Part shown: piece by piece, positions 3,075 to 31,144 of the stretch
How the letters are laid out: each line of letters opens with the position of its first letter
Position numbering within the stretch: position 1 is the stretch's first letter
NCBI GenBank assembly: GCA_900551015.1
Contig: URUI01000001.1
Location: forward strand, 400-64,399
Length of the DNA: 64,000 bases
Source of the DNA: an uncultured Collinsella sp.
Lineage (GTDB): Bacteria; Actinomycetota; Coriobacteriia; Coriobacteriales; Coriobacteriaceae
Reading direction: 5' to 3'
The notes under the pieces: generated by a model
Told to the model about the DNA's origin: nothing
The model's database searches: none
What the model saw: the letters and a program-made list of their open reading frames with translations, nothing else
Position numbers and translations under genes: made by a program

Positions 3075-4142
3075 CTAATCCTCGGCGTTATAGCCAAAGC
3101 GGCGAATCTGGGCCTCGTCGTCACGCCAGCCGGCCTTGACCTTCACGTCCAGCTCCAAAAAGACCTGGGTGCCAAAGATGCGCTCAAGGTCGCGACGGGC
3201 GTCAATGCCGATATGTTTGATCATCTCGCCGCCCTTGCCGATGATGATGCCCTTTTGGCCCTCGCGCTCGACGTAAATGGTGGCGTGCACGCGCAGCACC
3301 TTCTTGGTCTGCTCAAGCGCATCGCAAATCACGCCCACGGAGTGCGGGATCTCATCACGGGTGCGGCGCAAGACCTTCTCGCGCACAAACTCGGCAACGA
3401 GCGTCTCATCGGAAGCGTCGGTACCCATGTCCTCGGGGAACCAACGCGGACCCTCGGGCAAAAAGTGCGCAACGGTCTCGATGAAGGCATCGACGTTAAA
3501 GTTCTTGACCGACGACGTCACGATCTCGTCGTCATATTCCATAAGCTCGTGGGCGGCCTTAAGCTGCTCCATGACCTGTGCGGGGTCGGCTTCATCGGCC
3601 TTGGTGAGCACCAGGACCTTCTTGGAACGGGCATTCTTGACACGCTCGGCAACCCAGGCGTCTCCCCTGCCGATCGGTTTAGTGGCATCAATCAAAAACG
3701 CGACAACATCGACATCGTTCAGCTCGAACAGCGCGCTCTTGTTGAGCTCGGACCCAAGACCGTCCTTGGGCTTGTGGATACCCGGGGTATCGACAAAGAC
3801 CAGCTGGTAGCCGGGGCGGTTGACGACGGCGCGCATGCGACGGCGGGTCGTCTGGGCCACCGGCGAGGTGATGGCGACCTTTTTGCCATAGCAGGCGTTG
3901 AGCAGCGTTGACTTACCGGCGTTGGGGCGGCCGACCAAGGCCACGAAGCCACTGCGGAAACCGGGCTCAACGTCGCCAAAGCCCGCGAGGCTGTCGTCCT
4001 CGTCGCACAGGGCGTCGAGTTCCTCGTCGCTCATGCCCTCAAACGGGTCGAACTCCTCGGCTTCCTCATAGGCCTCGGTCGCCTTAGCATCCGGGGACTC
4101 GTCGTCCAAAATTTCATCGATAGGCTGCATATTGTCGGACAA
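3075..4142 (-). CDS. era: GTPase Era with an unusual ~55-aa acidic N-terminal extension
   Basis: The G1 motif GRPNAGKST, DTPG, TKAD and a C-terminal KH domain (IIGKGGEMIK) are all present. The start is a TTG preceded by an AAGGGA RBS. Confidence 0.9.
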   Translation of the reverse strand: MSDNMQPIDEILDDESPDAKATEAYEEAEEFDPFEGMSDEELDALCDEDDSLAGFGDVEPGFRSGFVALVGRPNAGKSTLLNACYGKKVAITSPVAQTTRRRMRAVVNRPGYQLVFVDTPGIHKPKDGLGSELNKSALFELNDVDVVAFLIDATKPIGRGDAWVAERVKNARSKKVLVLTKADEADPAQVMEQLKAAHELMEYDDEIVTSSVKNFNVDAFIETVAHFLPEGPRWFPEDMGTDASDETLVAEFVREKVLRRTRDEIPHSVGVICDALEQTKKVLRVHATIYVEREGQKGIIIGKGGEMIKHIGIDARRDLERIFGTQVFLELDVKVKAGWRDDEAQIRRFGYNAED

Positions 4143-26553: not shown

Positions 26554-26793
26554 TCACATGTCTTGACTGCTGACACAGTCAAAAAAATAGATGCCCAACC
26601 GCTTAAGCGGACCAGACACCCACAGGAAAGGCTGCTCTTTGGCAGCTATGTAATTCCATGTGGGTATCTCGTACCCCTTTAATGGTCAAGGGATAGTGTA
26701 GCCAACCTCGAGCTTAATTGCGAGCATAAATACAGAGCAATCCGTAAACGTGCGCAGGCGCTCCATAAACCTATATATATTTGTGGGACGAGC

Positions 26794-26822
26794 TTGAAAA
26801 CACACGCACGAGCTGGCATAAT
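26794..26822 (+). promoter_or_regulatory. Putative sigma-70-type promoter for rpmB (TTGAAA-17-CATAAT)
   Basis: The sequence is cTTGAAAacacacgcacgagctggCATAAT. A ~170-nt leader follows that contains small hairpins. Confidence 0.35.
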
Positions 26823-26991
26823 CCCCTCTGCTGCACGCAAATCGGATCTACGTCCAGGGCCGTAGCGTGGGCACTATCGCCAAAAGAGGAATATCTCTGT
26901 GTAGATTGCGCACAGGGAGCGACTTCTGTGCTATAGTTCAGGCTTGTTTGCTAACGCGACATGTTCGTTTGTCGCCCAAGGAGGGTCAGTT

Positions 26992-27180
26992 ATGTCCAAA
27001 GTTTGCGAAGTTTGCGGTAAGCACCCCGTTGCCGGTCGCTCCATCAGCCACTCTCACCGCGTCACCAACCGTAAGTTCCGCCCCAACATCCAGCGCGTCT
27101 ACGTCGTCGTCGATGGTCACCGTCGCAAGATGAACGTTTGCTCCACCTGCCTTAAGTCTGGCAAGGTTGCGCGCTCCTAA
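26992..27180 (+). CDS. rpmB: 50S ribosomal protein L28 (C4 zinc-ribbon type)
   Basis: MSKVCEVCGKHPVAGRSISHSHRVTNRKFRPNIQRVYVVVDGHRRKMNVCSTCLK... I chose the ATG with an AAGGAGGG RBS. Confidence 0.9.
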   Translation: MSKVCEVCGKHPVAGRSISHSHRVTNRKFRPNIQRVYVVVDGHRRKMNVCSTCLKSGKVARS

Positions 27181-27249
27181 ATAAGGTCTTACCAACAAGT
27201 ACCTCGGACTCTCCGGGTCAAAGACCTCGCGTTCATATAGAACTTACCA

Positions 27250-27281
27250 AAGGCGTCCTCCCCCACGGAGGGCGCCTTTTT
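27250..27281 (+). terminator. Rho-independent terminator after rpmB
   Basis: The plus-strand hairpin GGCGTCCTCC-CCCAC-GGAGGGCGCC is followed by TTTTT. Confidence 0.7.
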
Positions 27282-27282
27282 G

Positions 27283-27343
27283 CACTCATTGGGGACAGAC
27301 TTACATGAGTGTTTTCACGCATTGGGGACAGACTTAGATGAAT
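27283..27343. repeat. Left terminal inverted repeat of the RAYT element
   Basis: See the mobile-element entry. It contains 2x CATTGGGGACAGAC and the palindrome CACTCAT-N15-ATGAGTG. Confidence 0.8.
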
Positions 27344-27387
27344 GCTTTCCTAAGCTCACAGTGCATCGATCGGCCCCAATCCATACC

Positions 27388-28164
27388 TCAGGCCGCCTCG
27401 TTCCAGCCTGTGGTGGCCTTGGTTACGCTTGTAGCGCCGATACCGGTGATACGGGCAATTTGCTTGACCGTAAGATGGGCCCGCCTGAGCCTTAGCAGAC
27501 AGGCATCGCGTTCGGGGCGTGGCAGGGCCTTGAGCAGCGCAGGATCAATGCTCGGCAGGGCCTCGTGTGCGACGGTAAGGGCATCCTCGTCGGGAATCCG
27601 TCGACGCGGAAGAATCTCAACTGACCAGATCCGCTCGGCAACTTCCTTAAGATGCTCGCAATAGCGACGGGAACCCCCGACAATATCGAGCATGGGGGCC
27701 GCATCGCAGATATCAAAGGGATCGTATCCCAGCTGGTATGCCTTGTAGCTTGACCAGCGGTAGGCATCAAGCGAGTCGAGCGCACCTTTCACGGGATTGA
27801 GATGGATATAATCGAGCAACTGCACCGCCTGCGTGTCCGACTCGACCGCGACCCGCGAATAGCGATTATCAAACAGGTGGCCCGTTCTTCCGGTTTTCCC
27901 ATTGAAATACTTGGCATAGGCCGTCAGCGCGCACTGCATTGCCTTTGAAAGGTTGTCAAATGGATCATCAACCATCAAATGAAAGTGGTTGTCCATAAGG
28001 CACCAAGCCAACACCGCCACTTCAAGGCGCGCAAACCTGTCCGAGATATCCGATAGGAAACGATAGCGGTCGGAATCATCTTCAAAAATAATCTGTTTGG
28101 AGTTGCCGCGGTCAAAGACGTGGTAATAGCCGGTAATCGAAACGGCGCGGGCGCATCGGGGCAT
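27388..28164 (-). CDS. REP-associated tyrosine transposase (IS200/IS605 Y1 family, TnpA_REP-like) with a C-terminal helix-turn-helix extension
   Basis: It has the HuH motif NHFHLMV and the downstream catalytic Tyr region (RWSSYKAY). A C-terminal ~60 aa (LLRLRRAHLTVKQIARITGIGATSVTKAT) looks like an HTH. I chose the ATG (MPRCARA) with an AAGGAGAG RBS. Confidence 0.8.
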   Translation of the reverse strand: MPRCARAVSITGYYHVFDRGNSKQIIFEDDSDRYRFLSDISDRFARLEVAVLAWCLMDNHFHLMVDDPFDNLSKAMQCALTAYAKYFNGKTGRTGHLFDNRYSRVAVESDTQAVQLLDYIHLNPVKGALDSLDAYRWSSYKAYQLGYDPFDICDAAPMLDIVGGSRRYCEHLKEVAERIWSVEILPRRRIPDEDALTVAHEALPSIDPALLKALPRPERDACLLRLRRAHLTVKQIARITGIGATSVTKATTGWNEAA

Positions 28165-28294
28165 AATCTCTCCTTTCAAAGCTGTACAGGCAACACCTAA
28201 AAGGAGAGAAGCAACGCGAAATGCTGAGCCTGTGACCTATTTATATCCAATGAGCGGCAAAAACAGGCCCAGAACGGCAAAATGGCAAATCGAT

Positions 28295-28345
28295 GTCTGT
28301 CCCCAATGAGTGAAACCACTCATGTAAGTCTGTCCCCAATGAGCG
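28295..28345. repeat. Right terminal inverted repeat of the RAYT element
   Basis: Plus strand GTCTGTCCCCAATGAGTGAAACCACTCATGTAAGTCTGTCCCCAATGAGCG. A partial extra copy, TCCAATGAGCGGC, lies at ~28246. Confidence 0.8.
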
Positions 28346-28374
28346 GGACGATGCACTGGCAGATAGTTTTAGTT

Positions 28375-28402
28375 AAAACGCTTCAGTTTGTTAAAGCGTT
28401 TT
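28375..28402. promoter_or_regulatory. 9-bp perfect inverted repeat (AAAACGCTT-N10-AAGCGTTTT) upstream of adhE; candidate operator
   Basis: Seen directly in the sequence. It lies ~95 nt upstream of the adhE start, between the RAYT right end and the putative adhE promoter. Confidence 0.3.
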
Positions 28403-28445
28403 AGTGTGCCTTTTACGGGAATCTTACCGTTCGCCGAATAATTTC

Positions 28446-28474
28446 TTGCTATCATGCAAGACGTAGGGTAAATC
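28446..28474 (+). promoter_or_regulatory. Putative adhE promoter (TTGCTA-17-TAAATC)
   Basis: The sequence is tTTGCTAtcatgcaagacgtagggTAAATC, ending ~22 nt before the adhE ATG. The -10 is weak. Confidence 0.25.
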
Positions 28475-28495
28475 TCCGATCGCAAGGAGACACAA

Positions 28496-31144
28496 ATGGT
28501 GAAAAAGTCACCGGAAAACACTACTCCCGCAATTGTGGACAACGTAGAGGCGCTTGAGGCTAAGCTCGCTCAGATGCGAGAGGCCCAGGCGCTTTTTGCT
28601 ACGTACACGCAGGAGCAGGTCGACAAGATCTTCTATGAGGCCGCCATGGCCGCCAACAAGGCTCGTATCCCGTTGGCGAAGATGGCCATCGAGGAGACCG
28701 GCCGCGGCGTTCTTGAGGACAAGGTCATCAAGAACCACTACGCCGCAGAGTACATCTACAACGCTTACAAGAACACCAAGACCTGTGGTGTCCTGGAGCG
28801 CGACGAGGCCTACGGCATCACCAAGATCGCCGAGCCCATCGGCATCGTGGGCGCCGTCATCCCGACGACCAACCCCACCTCCACTGCGATCTTCAAGACG
28901 CTGATCAGCCTGAAGACCCGCAACGGCATCATCATCTCCCCGCACCCGGCAGCCGCCAAGTGCACCATCGCCGCCGCCAAGCTCGTGCTTGACGCCGCCG
29001 TCAAGGCCGGCGCCCCCGAGGGCATCATCGGCTGGGTCGATGTCCCCTCCATCGAGCTGACCAACATGGTCATGCGCGACGTCGACATCATCCTCGCCAC
29101 CGGTGGCCCGGGCATGGTCAAGGCCGCCTACTCCTCGGGCAAGCCCGCCCTGGGCGTCGGCGCCGGTAACACCCCGGTCGTCATCGACGACACCGCCGAC
29201 GTGCTGCTCGCCGTCAACTCCATCATCCACTCAAAGACCTTCGACAACGGCATGATCTGCGCTTCCGAGCAGTCCGTGACCGTCATCGACACCATCTATG
29301 ACCAGGTCAAGGCCGAGTTCCAGAAGCGTGGCTGCTACTTCGTCAAGCAGGGTGCCGAGATGGAGGCCCTGCGTGCCGCCATGTTCAAGAACGGCGCCCT
29401 CGATCACCGCATCCCCGGCATGGCTGCCGCCAAGATCGCCGAGCTCGCCGGCATCGAGGTTCCCGCCAAGACCAAGATCCTGATCGCCGAGGTCACCTCC
29501 ACCGACCCCGCCAAGGAGGAGTTCTCCCACGAGAAGCTCTCCCCGGTCCTGGCCATGTACCACGCCAAGGACTTCCAGGAGGCCGTCGACAAGGCCGAGC
29601 ACCTGGTGCTCGCCGGTGGCCCGGGCCACACCGCCTCTCTGTATGTGCACCCCGCCCAGGCCGAGAAGATCAGCCTGTTCGAGCACGTCATGAAAGCCTG
29701 CCGTATCGTCATCAACACCCCGTCCTCGCACGGCGGCATCGGTGACCTGTACAACTTTGGCATGAAGCCGTCTCTGACCCTGGGCTGCGGCTCCTGGGGC
29801 GGCAACTCCGTCTCCGAGAACGTTGGGGTGAAGCACTTGATCAACGTTAAGACTGTGGCCGAGCGCCGTGAGAACATGCTGTGGTTCCGCGCTCCCGAGA
29901 AGGTCTACTTCAAGAAGGGTTCCACGCCCGTCGCCCTCGACGAGCTCGGTACCGTCATGGGCAAGAAGCGCGCCTTCATCGTCACCGACCAGTTCCTCTT
30001 CAAGAACGGCAACACCCGCGCCATCGAGGCCAAGCTCGACGAGATGGGCATCGCCCACGATTGCTTCTACGACGTCGAGCCCGATCCGTCGCTGCAGTGC
30101 GCACGTCGCGGCGCCAAGCAGATGGCCCTCTTTGAGCCTGACGTGATCATCGCCGTCGGCGGTGGCTCCGCTATGGACGCCGGCAAGATCATGTGGATGA
30201 TGTACGAGCACCCCGAGTGCAAGTTTGAGGACATGGCCATGGACTTCATGGACATCCGCAAGCGTATCTTCACCTTCCCCGAGATGGGCAAGAAGGCCTA
30301 CTTCGTCGCCGTCCCGACCTCTTCGGGTACCGGCTCCGAGTGCACGCCGTTCGCCATCATCACCGACAAGGAGACCGGCATCAAGTGGCCGCTCGCCGAC
30401 TACGCGCTGCTCCCCAACATGGCTATCGTCGACGCCGACAACTGCATGACCGCCCCGCGCGGCCTGACCGCTGCCTCCGGCATCGACGTCATGACCCACG
30501 CCATTGAGTCCTACGTCTCCATCATGGCTTCCGACTACACCAAGGGCCTCTCCGAGCGCGCTGCCAAGCTCGTCTTCGAGAACCTGCCCTCCAGCTTCGA
30601 GAACGGCGCCAAGGACCCGCACGCCCGCGAGGAGATGCACAACGCCTCCTGCATGGCCGGTATGGCCTTCGCCAACGCCTTCCTGGGCCTCAACCACTCC
30701 ATGGCTCACAAGCTCGGCGCCTTCCATCACCTGCCCCACGGCCTCGCCAACGCCGTCATCCTGACTCGCGTCATGCGCTACAACGCCGCCGAGGCTCCCG
30801 TCAAGATGGGCACGTTCTCCCAGTATCCTTACCCCAACGCGCTGCACAACTACGCCGAGATGGCCAAGTACTGCGGCATCGAGGGCAAGGACGACAAGGA
30901 GGTCTTCGAGAACTTCATCACGAAGCTCGAGGAGCTCAAGGACTTCATCGGTGTCAAGAAGACCATCGCCGACTACGGTGTCGACGAGCAGTACTTCCTC
31001 GACACCCTCGATGAGATGACCGAGCAGGCATTCAACGACCAGTGCACCGGCGCTAACCCGCGCTATCCGCTCATGAGCGAGATCAAGGAGCTCTACCTGG
31101 ACGCCTACTACGGCCGCGAGCCCCAGGATTACGCCGTCTGCTAG
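28496..31144 (+). CDS. adhE: Bifunctional acetaldehyde-CoA / alcohol dehydrogenase AdhE
   Basis: 882 aa. The N-terminal half is an aldehyde dehydrogenase domain; the C-terminal half is an iron-containing ADH domain with GGGSAMD and the metal-ligand histidines. A GCAAGGAGA RBS is present. Confidence 0.93.
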   Translation: MVKKSPENTTPAIVDNVEALEAKLAQMREAQALFATYTQEQVDKIFYEAAMAANKARIPLAKMAIEETGRGVLEDKVIKNHYAAEYIYNAYKNTKTCGVLERDEAYGITKIAEPIGIVGAVIPTTNPTSTAIFKTLISLKTRNGIIISPHPAAAKCTIAAAKLVLDAAVKAGAPEGIIGWVDVPSIELTNMVMRDVDIILATGGPGMVKAAYSSGKPALGVGAGNTPVVIDDTADVLLAVNSIIHSKTFDNGMICASEQSVTVIDTIYDQVKAEFQKRGCYFVKQGAEMEALRAAMFKNGALDHRIPGMAAAKIAELAGIEVPAKTKILIAEVTSTDPAKEEFSHEKLSPVLAMYHAKDFQEAVDKAEHLVLAGGPGHTASLYVHPAQAEKISLFEHVMKACRIVINTPSSHGGIGDLYNFGMKPSLTLGCGSWGGNSVSENVGVKHLINVKTVAERRENMLWFRAPEKVYFKKGSTPVALDELGTVMGKKRAFIVTDQFLFKNGNTRAIEAKLDEMGIAHDCFYDVEPDPSLQCARRGAKQMALFEPDVIIAVGGGSAMDAGKIMWMMYEHPECKFEDMAMDFMDIRKRIFTFPEMGKKAYFVAVPTSSGTGSECTPFAIITDKETGIKWPLADYALLPNMAIVDADNCMTAPRGLTAASGIDVMTHAIESYVSIMASDYTKGLSERAAKLVFENLPSSFENGAKDPHAREEMHNASCMAGMAFANAFLGLNHSMAHKLGAFHHLPHGLANAVILTRVMRYNAAEAPVKMGTFSQYPYPNALHNYAEMAKYCGIEGKDDKEVFENFITKLEELKDFIGVKKTIADYGVDEQYFLDTLDEMTEQAFNDQCTGANPRYPLMSEIKELYLDAYYGREPQDYAVC

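Follow-up and report, generated by a model that had tools for sequence, protein, structure and literature searches.

Is the transposase gene that lies between rpmB and adhE in Collinsella part of a mobile element inserted there recently, or is it a long-standing resident of its site? The question is raised by a 64,000-nucleotide stretch of DNA from an uncultured Collinsella sp. (GenBank assembly GCA_900551015.1, contig URUI01000001.1, positions 400-64,399; hereafter the window), in which positions 27283-28345 comprise one gene for a Y1 HUH transposase enclosed by inverted repeats. A first-pass annotation, made from the sequence alone, described this segment as a self-contained mobile insertion of the kind formed by the REP-associated tyrosine transposases (RAYTs; REP, repetitive extragenic palindrome) or by the insertion sequence (IS) IS200. 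Collinsella is an abundant and extremely strain-diverse genus of the human gut. Here we argue, with a probability of roughly 0.8, that the locus is a REPtron of the TIRtron type, that is, a fixed and vertically inherited Y1 HUH gene standing between inverted tandem arrays of its cognate 29-nt hairpin. It is a domesticated transposase system of an already known type; the Collinsella example is new, and the diversity of alleles at one locus stands out.

Between rpmB (26992-27180) and adhE (28496-31144), both on the plus strand, lies a spacer of 1,315 nt with a single open reading frame, on the minus strand. Its inverted ends, previously estimated to match at about 53 of 57 positions, are real. 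Aligned without gaps, 27283-27339 and the reverse complement of 28289-28345 agree at 52/57 positions, and a repeat finder reports 55-nt arms (27285-27339 and 28289-28343) that are 93% complementary, while in 20 shuffled versions of the spacer no 55-nt window exceeded 28/55. Each end consists of two 29-nt units in tandem, repeated every 33 nt (repeat families D1 and D3), and the description of the ends as built from REP-like hairpin units is upheld. The motif GGGGACAG is found in 4/4 units. CATTGGGGACAGAC occurs exactly four times in the window, twice at each end and in opposite orientation, even when two mismatches are allowed; 0.34 copies are expected by chance, and four were reached in 0/100 shuffles. 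The two motif copies claimed for each end are therefore present, and the palindromic stem claimed with them, ACTCAT/ATGAGT around a loop containing GGGGACAGAC, is restricted to the two outer units, where CACTCAT/ATGAGTG encloses a 15-nt loop. Of the inner units, the left one has a degenerate stem (CACGCAT/ATGAATG) and the right one is without its 3' half. The element borders the rpmB terminator hairpin (27249-27279) on one side and a conserved 150 nt upstream of adhE on the other, as had been proposed.

The start of the gene is placed at the ATG at 28164, because this ATG follows a ribosome-binding site (RBS), AAAGGAGAG, and gives the conserved N-terminus MPRxAR; the product then has 258 residues. 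Pfam Y1_Tnp matches it with 30.1 bits (cut-off 23), in agreement with the original call of a single Y1 transposase gene of RAYT type. The HUH motif is H60-F-H62 and the catalytic motif is Y119-IHL-N123-P124 (Y-x3-NP), with YRWSS at 135-139. H60, H62, Y119, N123, P124, W137 and S138-S139 are invariant in 20 aligned homologues down to 40% identity, as are residues of a predicted C-terminal helix-turn-helix (HTH), LTVKQIxRLTGIG. This HTH spans approximately residues 192-250 and its helices are modelled at pLDDT >90; no HTH model reaches its threshold (HTH_23, E = 0.045, under the Pfam cut-off), and a profile match to the HTH of PH1932 has E = 0.024. When a profile of the homologue alignment was compared with the PDB, the best match was 4ER8, Escherichia coli TnpA-REP (E = 2e-4), with ISDra2 TnpA at E = 0.17; a single-sequence phmmer search of the PDB returned nothing relevant, so that the profile was required. 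The AlphaFold2 model (mean pLDDT 89.3) was compared using Foldseek, which also places 4ER8 on top (E = 1.5e-6, TM score 0.71 on the target), followed by the ISDra2, IS608 and IS200 transposases, the first two of these at E of about 1e-3. Both sequence and fold are thus nearer to TnpA-REP than to IS608 or ISDra2 TnpA. Sequence and model together assign the protein to the Y1 HUH enzymes of the RAYT/TnpA-REP class and give it an additional C-terminal domain of DNA-binding type.

The gene occupies the same rpmB-adhE site in 44 of the 44 places examined. An index of public assemblies lists the exact protein in 472 blocks; ten places were inspected, all ten between adhE and rpmB, with pyrR and pyrB beyond rpmB. 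A 92%-identical protein gave four places with the same neighbours as far as the contigs reach. A scan of one genome per species yielded, among the matches listed, 16 loci with the full gene and four with a remnant, and 20/20 adjoin rpmB, with adhE on the far side wherever the locus extends far enough; inverted flanking repeats like those of the window were found at 16 other full-length loci among these matches. Finally, a search with the L28 protein returned ten long contigs (1.1-2.5 Mb) with seven full genes and three remnants at the site; of the seven, one is interrupted by an in-frame stop and one lies beside an rve-family IS. The titles of the host records are Collinsella, including C. aerofaciens. 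No second copy of the gene was seen at the 44 places or elsewhere in the window. The first-pass annotation had looked to spacers lacking the element for the insertion boundaries and any target duplication, but none of the ten places found with the L28 protein had an empty spacer, only full genes or remnants, and no target duplication was seen at the site. Relatives are present in 15 of 72,556 plasmid records, all below 60% identity, and in one of 50,697 phage records.

The alleles at this site are old and constrained. Among 27 distinct alleles of type A, the type found in the window, the median synonymous divergence (dS) is 0.34 and the ratio of nonsynonymous to synonymous divergence (dN/dS) is 0.105, with 0.067 in the catalytic N-terminal half and 0.15 in the C-terminal half. 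Because there is a single site and its alleles have diverged to a dS of 0.34 at a dN/dS of 0.1, sequence comparison indicates a vertically inherited, domesticated locus and not a recent insertion, and the proposal of a self-contained mobile insertion is abandoned.

A decayed form of the gene was observed at the same site (L145, L146, L148, 2390-2890; also L032, L091, L099, L105, L187 and L192). Here one repeat unit on each side abuts an internal gene fragment (approximately residues 85-156), and the junctions are common to several genomes, which points to a single old double deletion passed down within a clade. The possibility that these fragments are transposed miniature copies was rejected, as 7/7 lie at the rpmB-adhE site. 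Many truncated or chimeric products of 145-225 residues, >90% identical, are also on record (e.g. P0011, P0016, P0034 and P0037), and the in-frame stop noted above lies in L152 (2620-3396). The sequences on record suggest that the gene is often inactivated in natural populations although its intact alleles are under purifying selection.

The repeat, for its part, also occurs away from the gene. A contig scan for CATTGGGGACAGACTTNNATG returned at least 120 stretches, and all of those listed but one were titled Collinsella, Coriobacteriaceae or uncultured bacterium, the exception being a contig binned as Sodaliphilus. Outside gene loci, the matches listed form 114 clusters, namely 35 inverted doublets, 50 singlets, 20 tandem pairs and a few larger arrays. 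Their consensus, cACTCATTGGGGACAGACTTAAATGAGTg, has a stem of 8 bp, which exceeds that of the gene-flanking units (TTACATGAG) by one pair, and a frequent stem variant, AGTCATT/AATGACT, alters both sides jointly. Sites were clustered using flanks 250-900 nt away, since the 400 nt directly beside the type-A units contain other repeat families and joined unrelated sites. Approximately 18 orthologous sites including the gene locus (about 17 without the gene) were distinguished among the matches listed, and most recur in many species. The number of units at one site varies between species (+, ++, +++) in clean 33-nt steps, and the gene's own flanks range from 2+2 to 4+2 units. Units of the type that accompanies a second transposase locus (alleles D and E, described below) are also dispersed, often in mixed clusters beside type-A units. 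The first-pass annotation had coupled a motif not repeated elsewhere with a fixed, domesticated locus as the outcome that would speak against it; the locus is fixed and the motif is repeated. A dispersed motif together with a fixed gene locus is the normal state of RAYT systems.

Repeat units tend to begin a few bases past the T-run of an intrinsic terminator, as seen after rpmB (window 27249-27283) and after rplX (1455-1660 in L239). The latter record, NZ_OY725717.1 (899,693 bp), goes under the name 'plasmid 6' of C. aerofaciens TSDC17.2-1.1. It nevertheless includes the ribosomal protein genes rpmC-rpsQ-rplN-rplX and is probably a piece of the chromosome; it also encodes a 33%-identical transposase paralogue at 221009-221749.

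The folding of the units depends on their arrangement. An inverted doublet is predicted to form a 26-bp hairpin with -29.6 kcal/mol (z = -13). Neighbouring units of a tandem pair can also base-pair with each other, the 3' stem half of the first with the 5' half of the second, and at the right end of the element an inter-unit hairpin, ATGAGTG-N4-CACTCAT, is predicted in place of the unit hairpin. In the mechanism that we propose, the enzyme would bind the single-stranded hairpin that the repeat forms, probably on the template of the lagging strand, and would read the loop motif, to which the C-terminal HTH may contribute. It would then cleave and rejoin DNA at the repeat via a 5'-phosphotyrosine intermediate at Y119, and would create, duplicate, invert and delete repeat units locally and at other sites, new sites being rare. 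It would not move its own gene, and the flanking arrays would serve as its cis sites.

Several observations weigh against the REPtron reading. The first is the low copy number of the repeat. No type-A unit or other GGGGAC-type hairpin was found in the 64-kb window outside the cassette, 64 kb being the scope of the count in the window's own genome, and the 0.9-Mb C. aerofaciens record has a single type-A site, where two units closely follow the rplX terminator. Non-gene and gene-locus clusters stand at about 5.4:1 among the matches listed. A genome probably has about five dispersed sites, as estimated from sampling ratios and that one 0.9-Mb record and not by direct count, whereas E. coli-type REPs (subclass 2.2) exceed 100 copies per genome. 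Spread to new sites would be rare or ancient, because the dispersed sites are mostly orthologous between species. Secondly, one unit folded as single-stranded DNA gives a weak hairpin of about -4.8 kcal/mol (z = -3.7, dispersed consensus). Thirdly, E. coli TnpA-REP needs a GTAG tag, which is lacking from the Collinsella repeat (four units, both strands); the conserved element of the repeat is the loop TTGGGGACAGAC, not GTAG. The NCBIfam model NF047646 (REP_Tyr_transpos, REP-associated tyrosine transposase), an equivalog model built around classical RAYTs, scores 52 bits, below its cut-off of 80. Binding, the position of cleavage and strand transfer are moreover proposed by analogy with E. coli TnpA-REP and IS608 TnpA.

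Divergent versions of the cassette stand at this one site. Contigs with divergent alleles have adhE 95-98% and rpmB 94-98% identical to the window at the nucleotide level, but their transposases are only 44-69% identical. Allele A2 (P0012; L236) is 69% identical to that of the window and retains the loop TTGGGGACAGAC with a different stem; allele F (P0044; L235; 55%) is flanked by GGAATTGGGGACGGAGTTCC; allele B (P0050; L135/L136; 54%) has units with GGGGACGTAG and GGGGACACAC; and allele C (P0071; L138/L140; 44%) has three tandem copies of GGTGCATTGGGGTCAGGTTACTTTGCACC. Alleles A, A2, B, C and F thus all lie in the rpmB-adhE spacer, each with a different repeat, and in all of them homology breaks exactly at the outermost repeat units: the outer left unit is the rpmB-side boundary in every allele, and on the adhE side homology ends just outside the outer right unit, at approximately 28346-28362. 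A second locus, between a MatE transporter gene and a CobA-FtsH pair, carries alleles D (P0069) and E (L160), which are 82% identical and have nearly identical leaders and a common loop, TTGGGGACGTTC, on different stems (AGTCATT versus GCCGGCA). It is possible, at a little under even odds, that the rpmB-adhE spacer is a hypervariable specificity locus in which enzyme and repeat switch specificity together, by diversifying selection or by exchange of the whole cassette; the MatE/CobA locus with its alleles D and E behaves like it. If true, such switching would contrast with REPIN-RAYT systems, for which a slow, clock-like co-evolution by vertical descent has been described, and the alleles would provide natural protein/loop pairs from which the recognition code of subclass 2.1/TIRYT could be read.

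Taken further, the same observations could mean that the whole cassette is an exchangeable unit at a docking site, where one cassette replaces another either through recombination between homologous, conserved flanks or through an exchange that the enzyme mediates at the outermost hairpins. This would explain why flanks so nearly identical enclose alleles so different, with different repeats and with breaks at the outermost units, and why allele C is as distant from A as the second-locus paralogues are; in L012, a C-type stem fragment, GGTGCAT, also persists just outside the A-type array. We nevertheless consider it unlikely as the account of the locus. Within class A the gene and its flanks co-occur in every sample, consistent with vertical descent, and none of the alleles turned up at another locus. 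Identities among A, A2, B and F are 54-69%, slightly above their identities to the paralogues D and E (46-53%), so that a long divergence in place, with homogenization of the flanks by recombination, is also possible.

Two further observations concern the edges of the arrays. Just inside the left array (27359-27368) and just outside the right one (28349-28358) stand the two halves of a perfect 10-nt inverted pair, CAGTGCATCG/CGATGCACTG. It resembles the allele-C repeat stem GGTGCAT, which L012 has at the matching position, approximately 20 nt upstream of its array, and it may be a relic of an older generation of repeats or due to chance, about one such pair being expected per 1.3 kb. In one genome (L153, approximately 3515-3570) an rve-family IS starts directly after an inner repeat unit (ATGAGTG, followed by GAAGCACGGGGG), in the adhE-side linker between units; the repeat array may therefore itself be a target of IS.

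The link between enzyme and repeat extends to distant relatives. Among 57 metagenomic relatives (29-49% identical), chosen for sufficient flank on both sides, 37 have flanking inverted hairpins far above shuffled controls, and GGGG[AT][CG] is found in the inverted repeats of 26 of these 37. Typical arms are GTGTCAA-GGGGACGGTTCT-CTTGACAC, GAAACAA-GGGGACGGTTCT-CTTGTTTC and ACCACCACAAA-GGGGACAGGCAC-CTTTGTGGTGGT. The stems vary by locus yet remain complementary, and the loop core is conserved and tracks the protein clade. Because the loop follows the clade while the stems vary and stay complementary, the hairpin is best read as the cognate site of the enzyme, with the loop as the probable carrier of specificity. 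No flanking inverted repeat above shuffled controls was found for L184, L185, L188, L195 and L215, and the 1-kb contigs of P0074 show neither neighbouring genes nor recognizable flanking repeats. The relatives L184-L186, L188, L189, L191, L194, L195, L198 and L215, from the human gut, form a subgroup that is 31-34% identical and matches residues 9-249; from their sequences, this L184-L215 subgroup may be a repeat-less branch of the family.

Upstream of the gene lie a leader and a probable promoter region. In the leader, CUUCUCUCCUUU is complementary over 10 nt, without mismatch, to the gene's own RBS, and the repeat finder reports a perfect 10-nt inverted repeat there (28167-28176/28200-28209; I12). 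The minimum free energy of the leader RNA is -27.2 kcal/mol (z = -2.7). The basal GGC/GCC stem is retained in alleles A, A2, B, D, E and F, with one pair that varies as AU, GC or UA; an Rfam scan of 26700-28700 gave no family at E up to 1. Such an RBS-covering hairpin probably keeps expression of the gene low. In IS200 the leader structure can likewise mask the ribosome-binding site. Farther upstream is a TATAAAT box (28239-28245). Immediately before it, read in the direction of the gene, comes CCGCTCATTGG (28247-28257), which duplicates the 5' half of a REP unit; the repeat finder lists the same element as CCAATGAGCGG at 28247-28257 and 28336-28346 (D7). Other alleles keep a TATAA-type box approximately 10 nt upstream of GGCTCAGCA. 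The box and CCGCTCATTGG are likely to form the promoter region of the gene, and with a half-unit beside TATAAAT the enzyme's binding site may overlap its own promoter. A scan with sigma-70 and terminator consensus models found nothing at 28239-28257 and one promoter-like match inside the gene, and none of its matches stood above shuffles. The adhE promoter probably lies outside the cassette, because the approximately 150 nt upstream of adhE are conserved irrespective of the cassette type; the transposase gene reads away from adhE.

A protein that is now mainly an HTH DNA-binding regulator, with hairpins that serve as terminators, RNA stabilizers or operators and with cleavage and joining irrelevant, would be in keeping with the repeat half-site that abuts the TATAAAT box, with the conserved and confidently modelled HTH, with repeats that often directly follow intrinsic terminators (rpmB and rplX) and with the rarity of new sites. 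A purely regulatory role is nonetheless very improbable, because homologues as distant as 40% identity all retain the HUH histidines, the tyrosine and the NP motif; in addition, dN/dS is lower in the catalytic half than in the C-terminal half, and unit numbers that shift between species in clean 33-nt steps fit ongoing processing of DNA. Least probable is an active, autonomous IS200/IS605-type element recently inserted between rpmB and adhE and jumping as a 1.06-kb unit, which the Y1 transposase domain, the near-perfect terminal inverted repeats and the sharp edges at the rpmB terminator and the adhE upstream region might suggest, but which is excluded by the fixed position and by the divergence of alleles at one site under purifying selection, and which is also at odds with the missing second copy, empty site and target duplication, with the affinity of sequence and fold to TnpA-REP, with the absence of close relatives from the plasmid and phage records searched, and with the lack of terminal inverted repeats in IS200/IS605 elements, whose enzymes have 130-150 residues. 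The label 'IS200-like' is accordingly misleading, and the gene should not be annotated as an active IS200-family transposase.

Table 1. Features of the rpmB-adhE cassette in window coordinates, and transposase genes at the second locus in contig coordinates.
Feature	Position	Strand	Remarks
Outer left REP unit, CACTCATTGGGGACAGACTTACATGAGTG	27283-27311	+	7-bp stem, 15-nt loop with GGGGACAG; starts 3 nt past the T-run of the rpmB terminator
Inner left REP unit, CACGCATTGGGGACAGACTTAGATGAATG	27316-27344	+	Degenerate stem; offset by 33 nt; 88% identical to the outer unit (repeat family D1)
Gene for Y1 HUH enzyme, RAYT/TnpA-REP class	27388-28164	-	258 residues
Gene 5' leader	28165-28236	-	CUUCUCUCCUUU pairs with RBS AAAGGAGAG; basal GGC...GCC stem; function putative
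TATAAAT box and CCGCTCATTGG	28239-28257	-	Likely promoter region of the gene; promoter role putative
Inner right REP unit, CACTCATTGGGGACAGACATCGAT	28289-28312	-	5' stem and loop motif only; 3' stem half absent
Outer right REP unit, CGCTCATTGGGGACAGACTTACATGAGTG	28317-28345	-	adhE-side edge of the variable cassette
Second-locus gene, L142/L143	3001-3771
Second-locus gene, L160	1501-2268

How does this locus compare with the systems already known? IS200/IS605 elements are multi-copy and mobile, with distinct left and right subterminal hairpins and short, dimeric transposases. The Collinsella locus has in common with IS608 and ISDra2 the Y1 HUH catalytic fold and DNA hairpins near its ends, and differs from them in its single site, its terminal inverted repeats and its 258-residue protein. 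The best match in both sequence and structure is TnpA-REP of the E. coli REPtron (Ton-Hoang et al., 2012, PMC3333891; Messing et al., 2012, 4ER8, PMC3479197), which is likewise encoded by a single-copy gene between its own inverted hairpin repeats, with repeats also dispersed in intergenic regions. The two proteins are 18% identical over the aligned core, and the Collinsella protein is approximately 95 residues longer and has a predicted HTH.

REPIN-RAYT systems (Bertels & Rainey, 2011, PMC3116915; Bertels et al., 2017, PMC5581495) resemble the locus in their vertical inheritance, fixed extragenic site and housekeeping-like purifying selection, as well as in inverted doublets that form long hairpins, several cognate protein-repeat pairs per genome and decay of the gene in some lineages. 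RAYTs have been described at fixed extragenic positions, with vertical inheritance and lineage-specific loss (Bertels & Rainey, 2011, PMC3116915). With about ten units per genome, the Collinsella repeat is by abundance like Group 1 or 4 and unlike the REPIN-rich Groups 2 and 3; in Groups 1 and 4 the 16-mers that flank the gene have only 12-14 genomic occurrences (Bertels et al., 2017, PMC5581495).

By its features, compared with the published description, the enzyme looks like a member of TnpA-REP subclass 2.1, or TIRYT. TIRtrons are RAYT-like genes (TIRYT) flanked by long inverted repeats that share GGGGWSAS, and some TIRYT repeats are moderately abundant families present as singles, dimers and clusters (Di Nocera et al., 2013, PMC3733652). 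Quentin et al. (2018, PMC6006769) equate TIRYT with subclass 2.1, the second largest Y1 HUH group, present in 14.9% of the strains surveyed, and describe long proteins with C-terminal domains like Bac_DnaA_C, HTH_23 or HTH_28, the class-2 signature Y-x3-NP and a serine motif. The Collinsella protein is likewise long and RAYT-like; it has the HUH and Y-x3-NP motifs, serines that follow the catalytic tyrosine, and a predicted C-terminal HTH. Its repeats are inverted and flank the gene, their GGGGACAG fits GGGG[AT][CG]A[CG], and the repeat family is moderately abundant, with single, dimeric and clustered copies. The differences lie in the repeats, which are short hairpins with the GGGG motif in the loop and form 33-nt tandem arrays, and in the host, a genus of the Coriobacteriia; no REP-like sequences were found beside subclass 2.1 genes by Quentin et al. 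(2018, PMC6006769), and the Actinobacteridae in their sample had only subclass 1.1. A literature search returned no paper linking Collinsella with RAYT/TIRYT systems among its top 15 results, which is not proof of absence. We know of no substrate structure or activity for subclass 2.1/TIRYT. In the Collinsella locus and in 37 of the 57 relatives, the GGGGWSAS repeats are short hairpins with the motif in the loop, the loop tracking the protein lineage while the stems drift, which offers a concrete and testable model of the substrate of subclass 2.1/TIRYT. The length-variable orthologous repeat sites and the multi-allelic cassette beside rpmB could, in addition, act as strain markers, and the locus as a whole would add a Collinsella member to the TIRtrons, with several enzyme-repeat pairs at one site.

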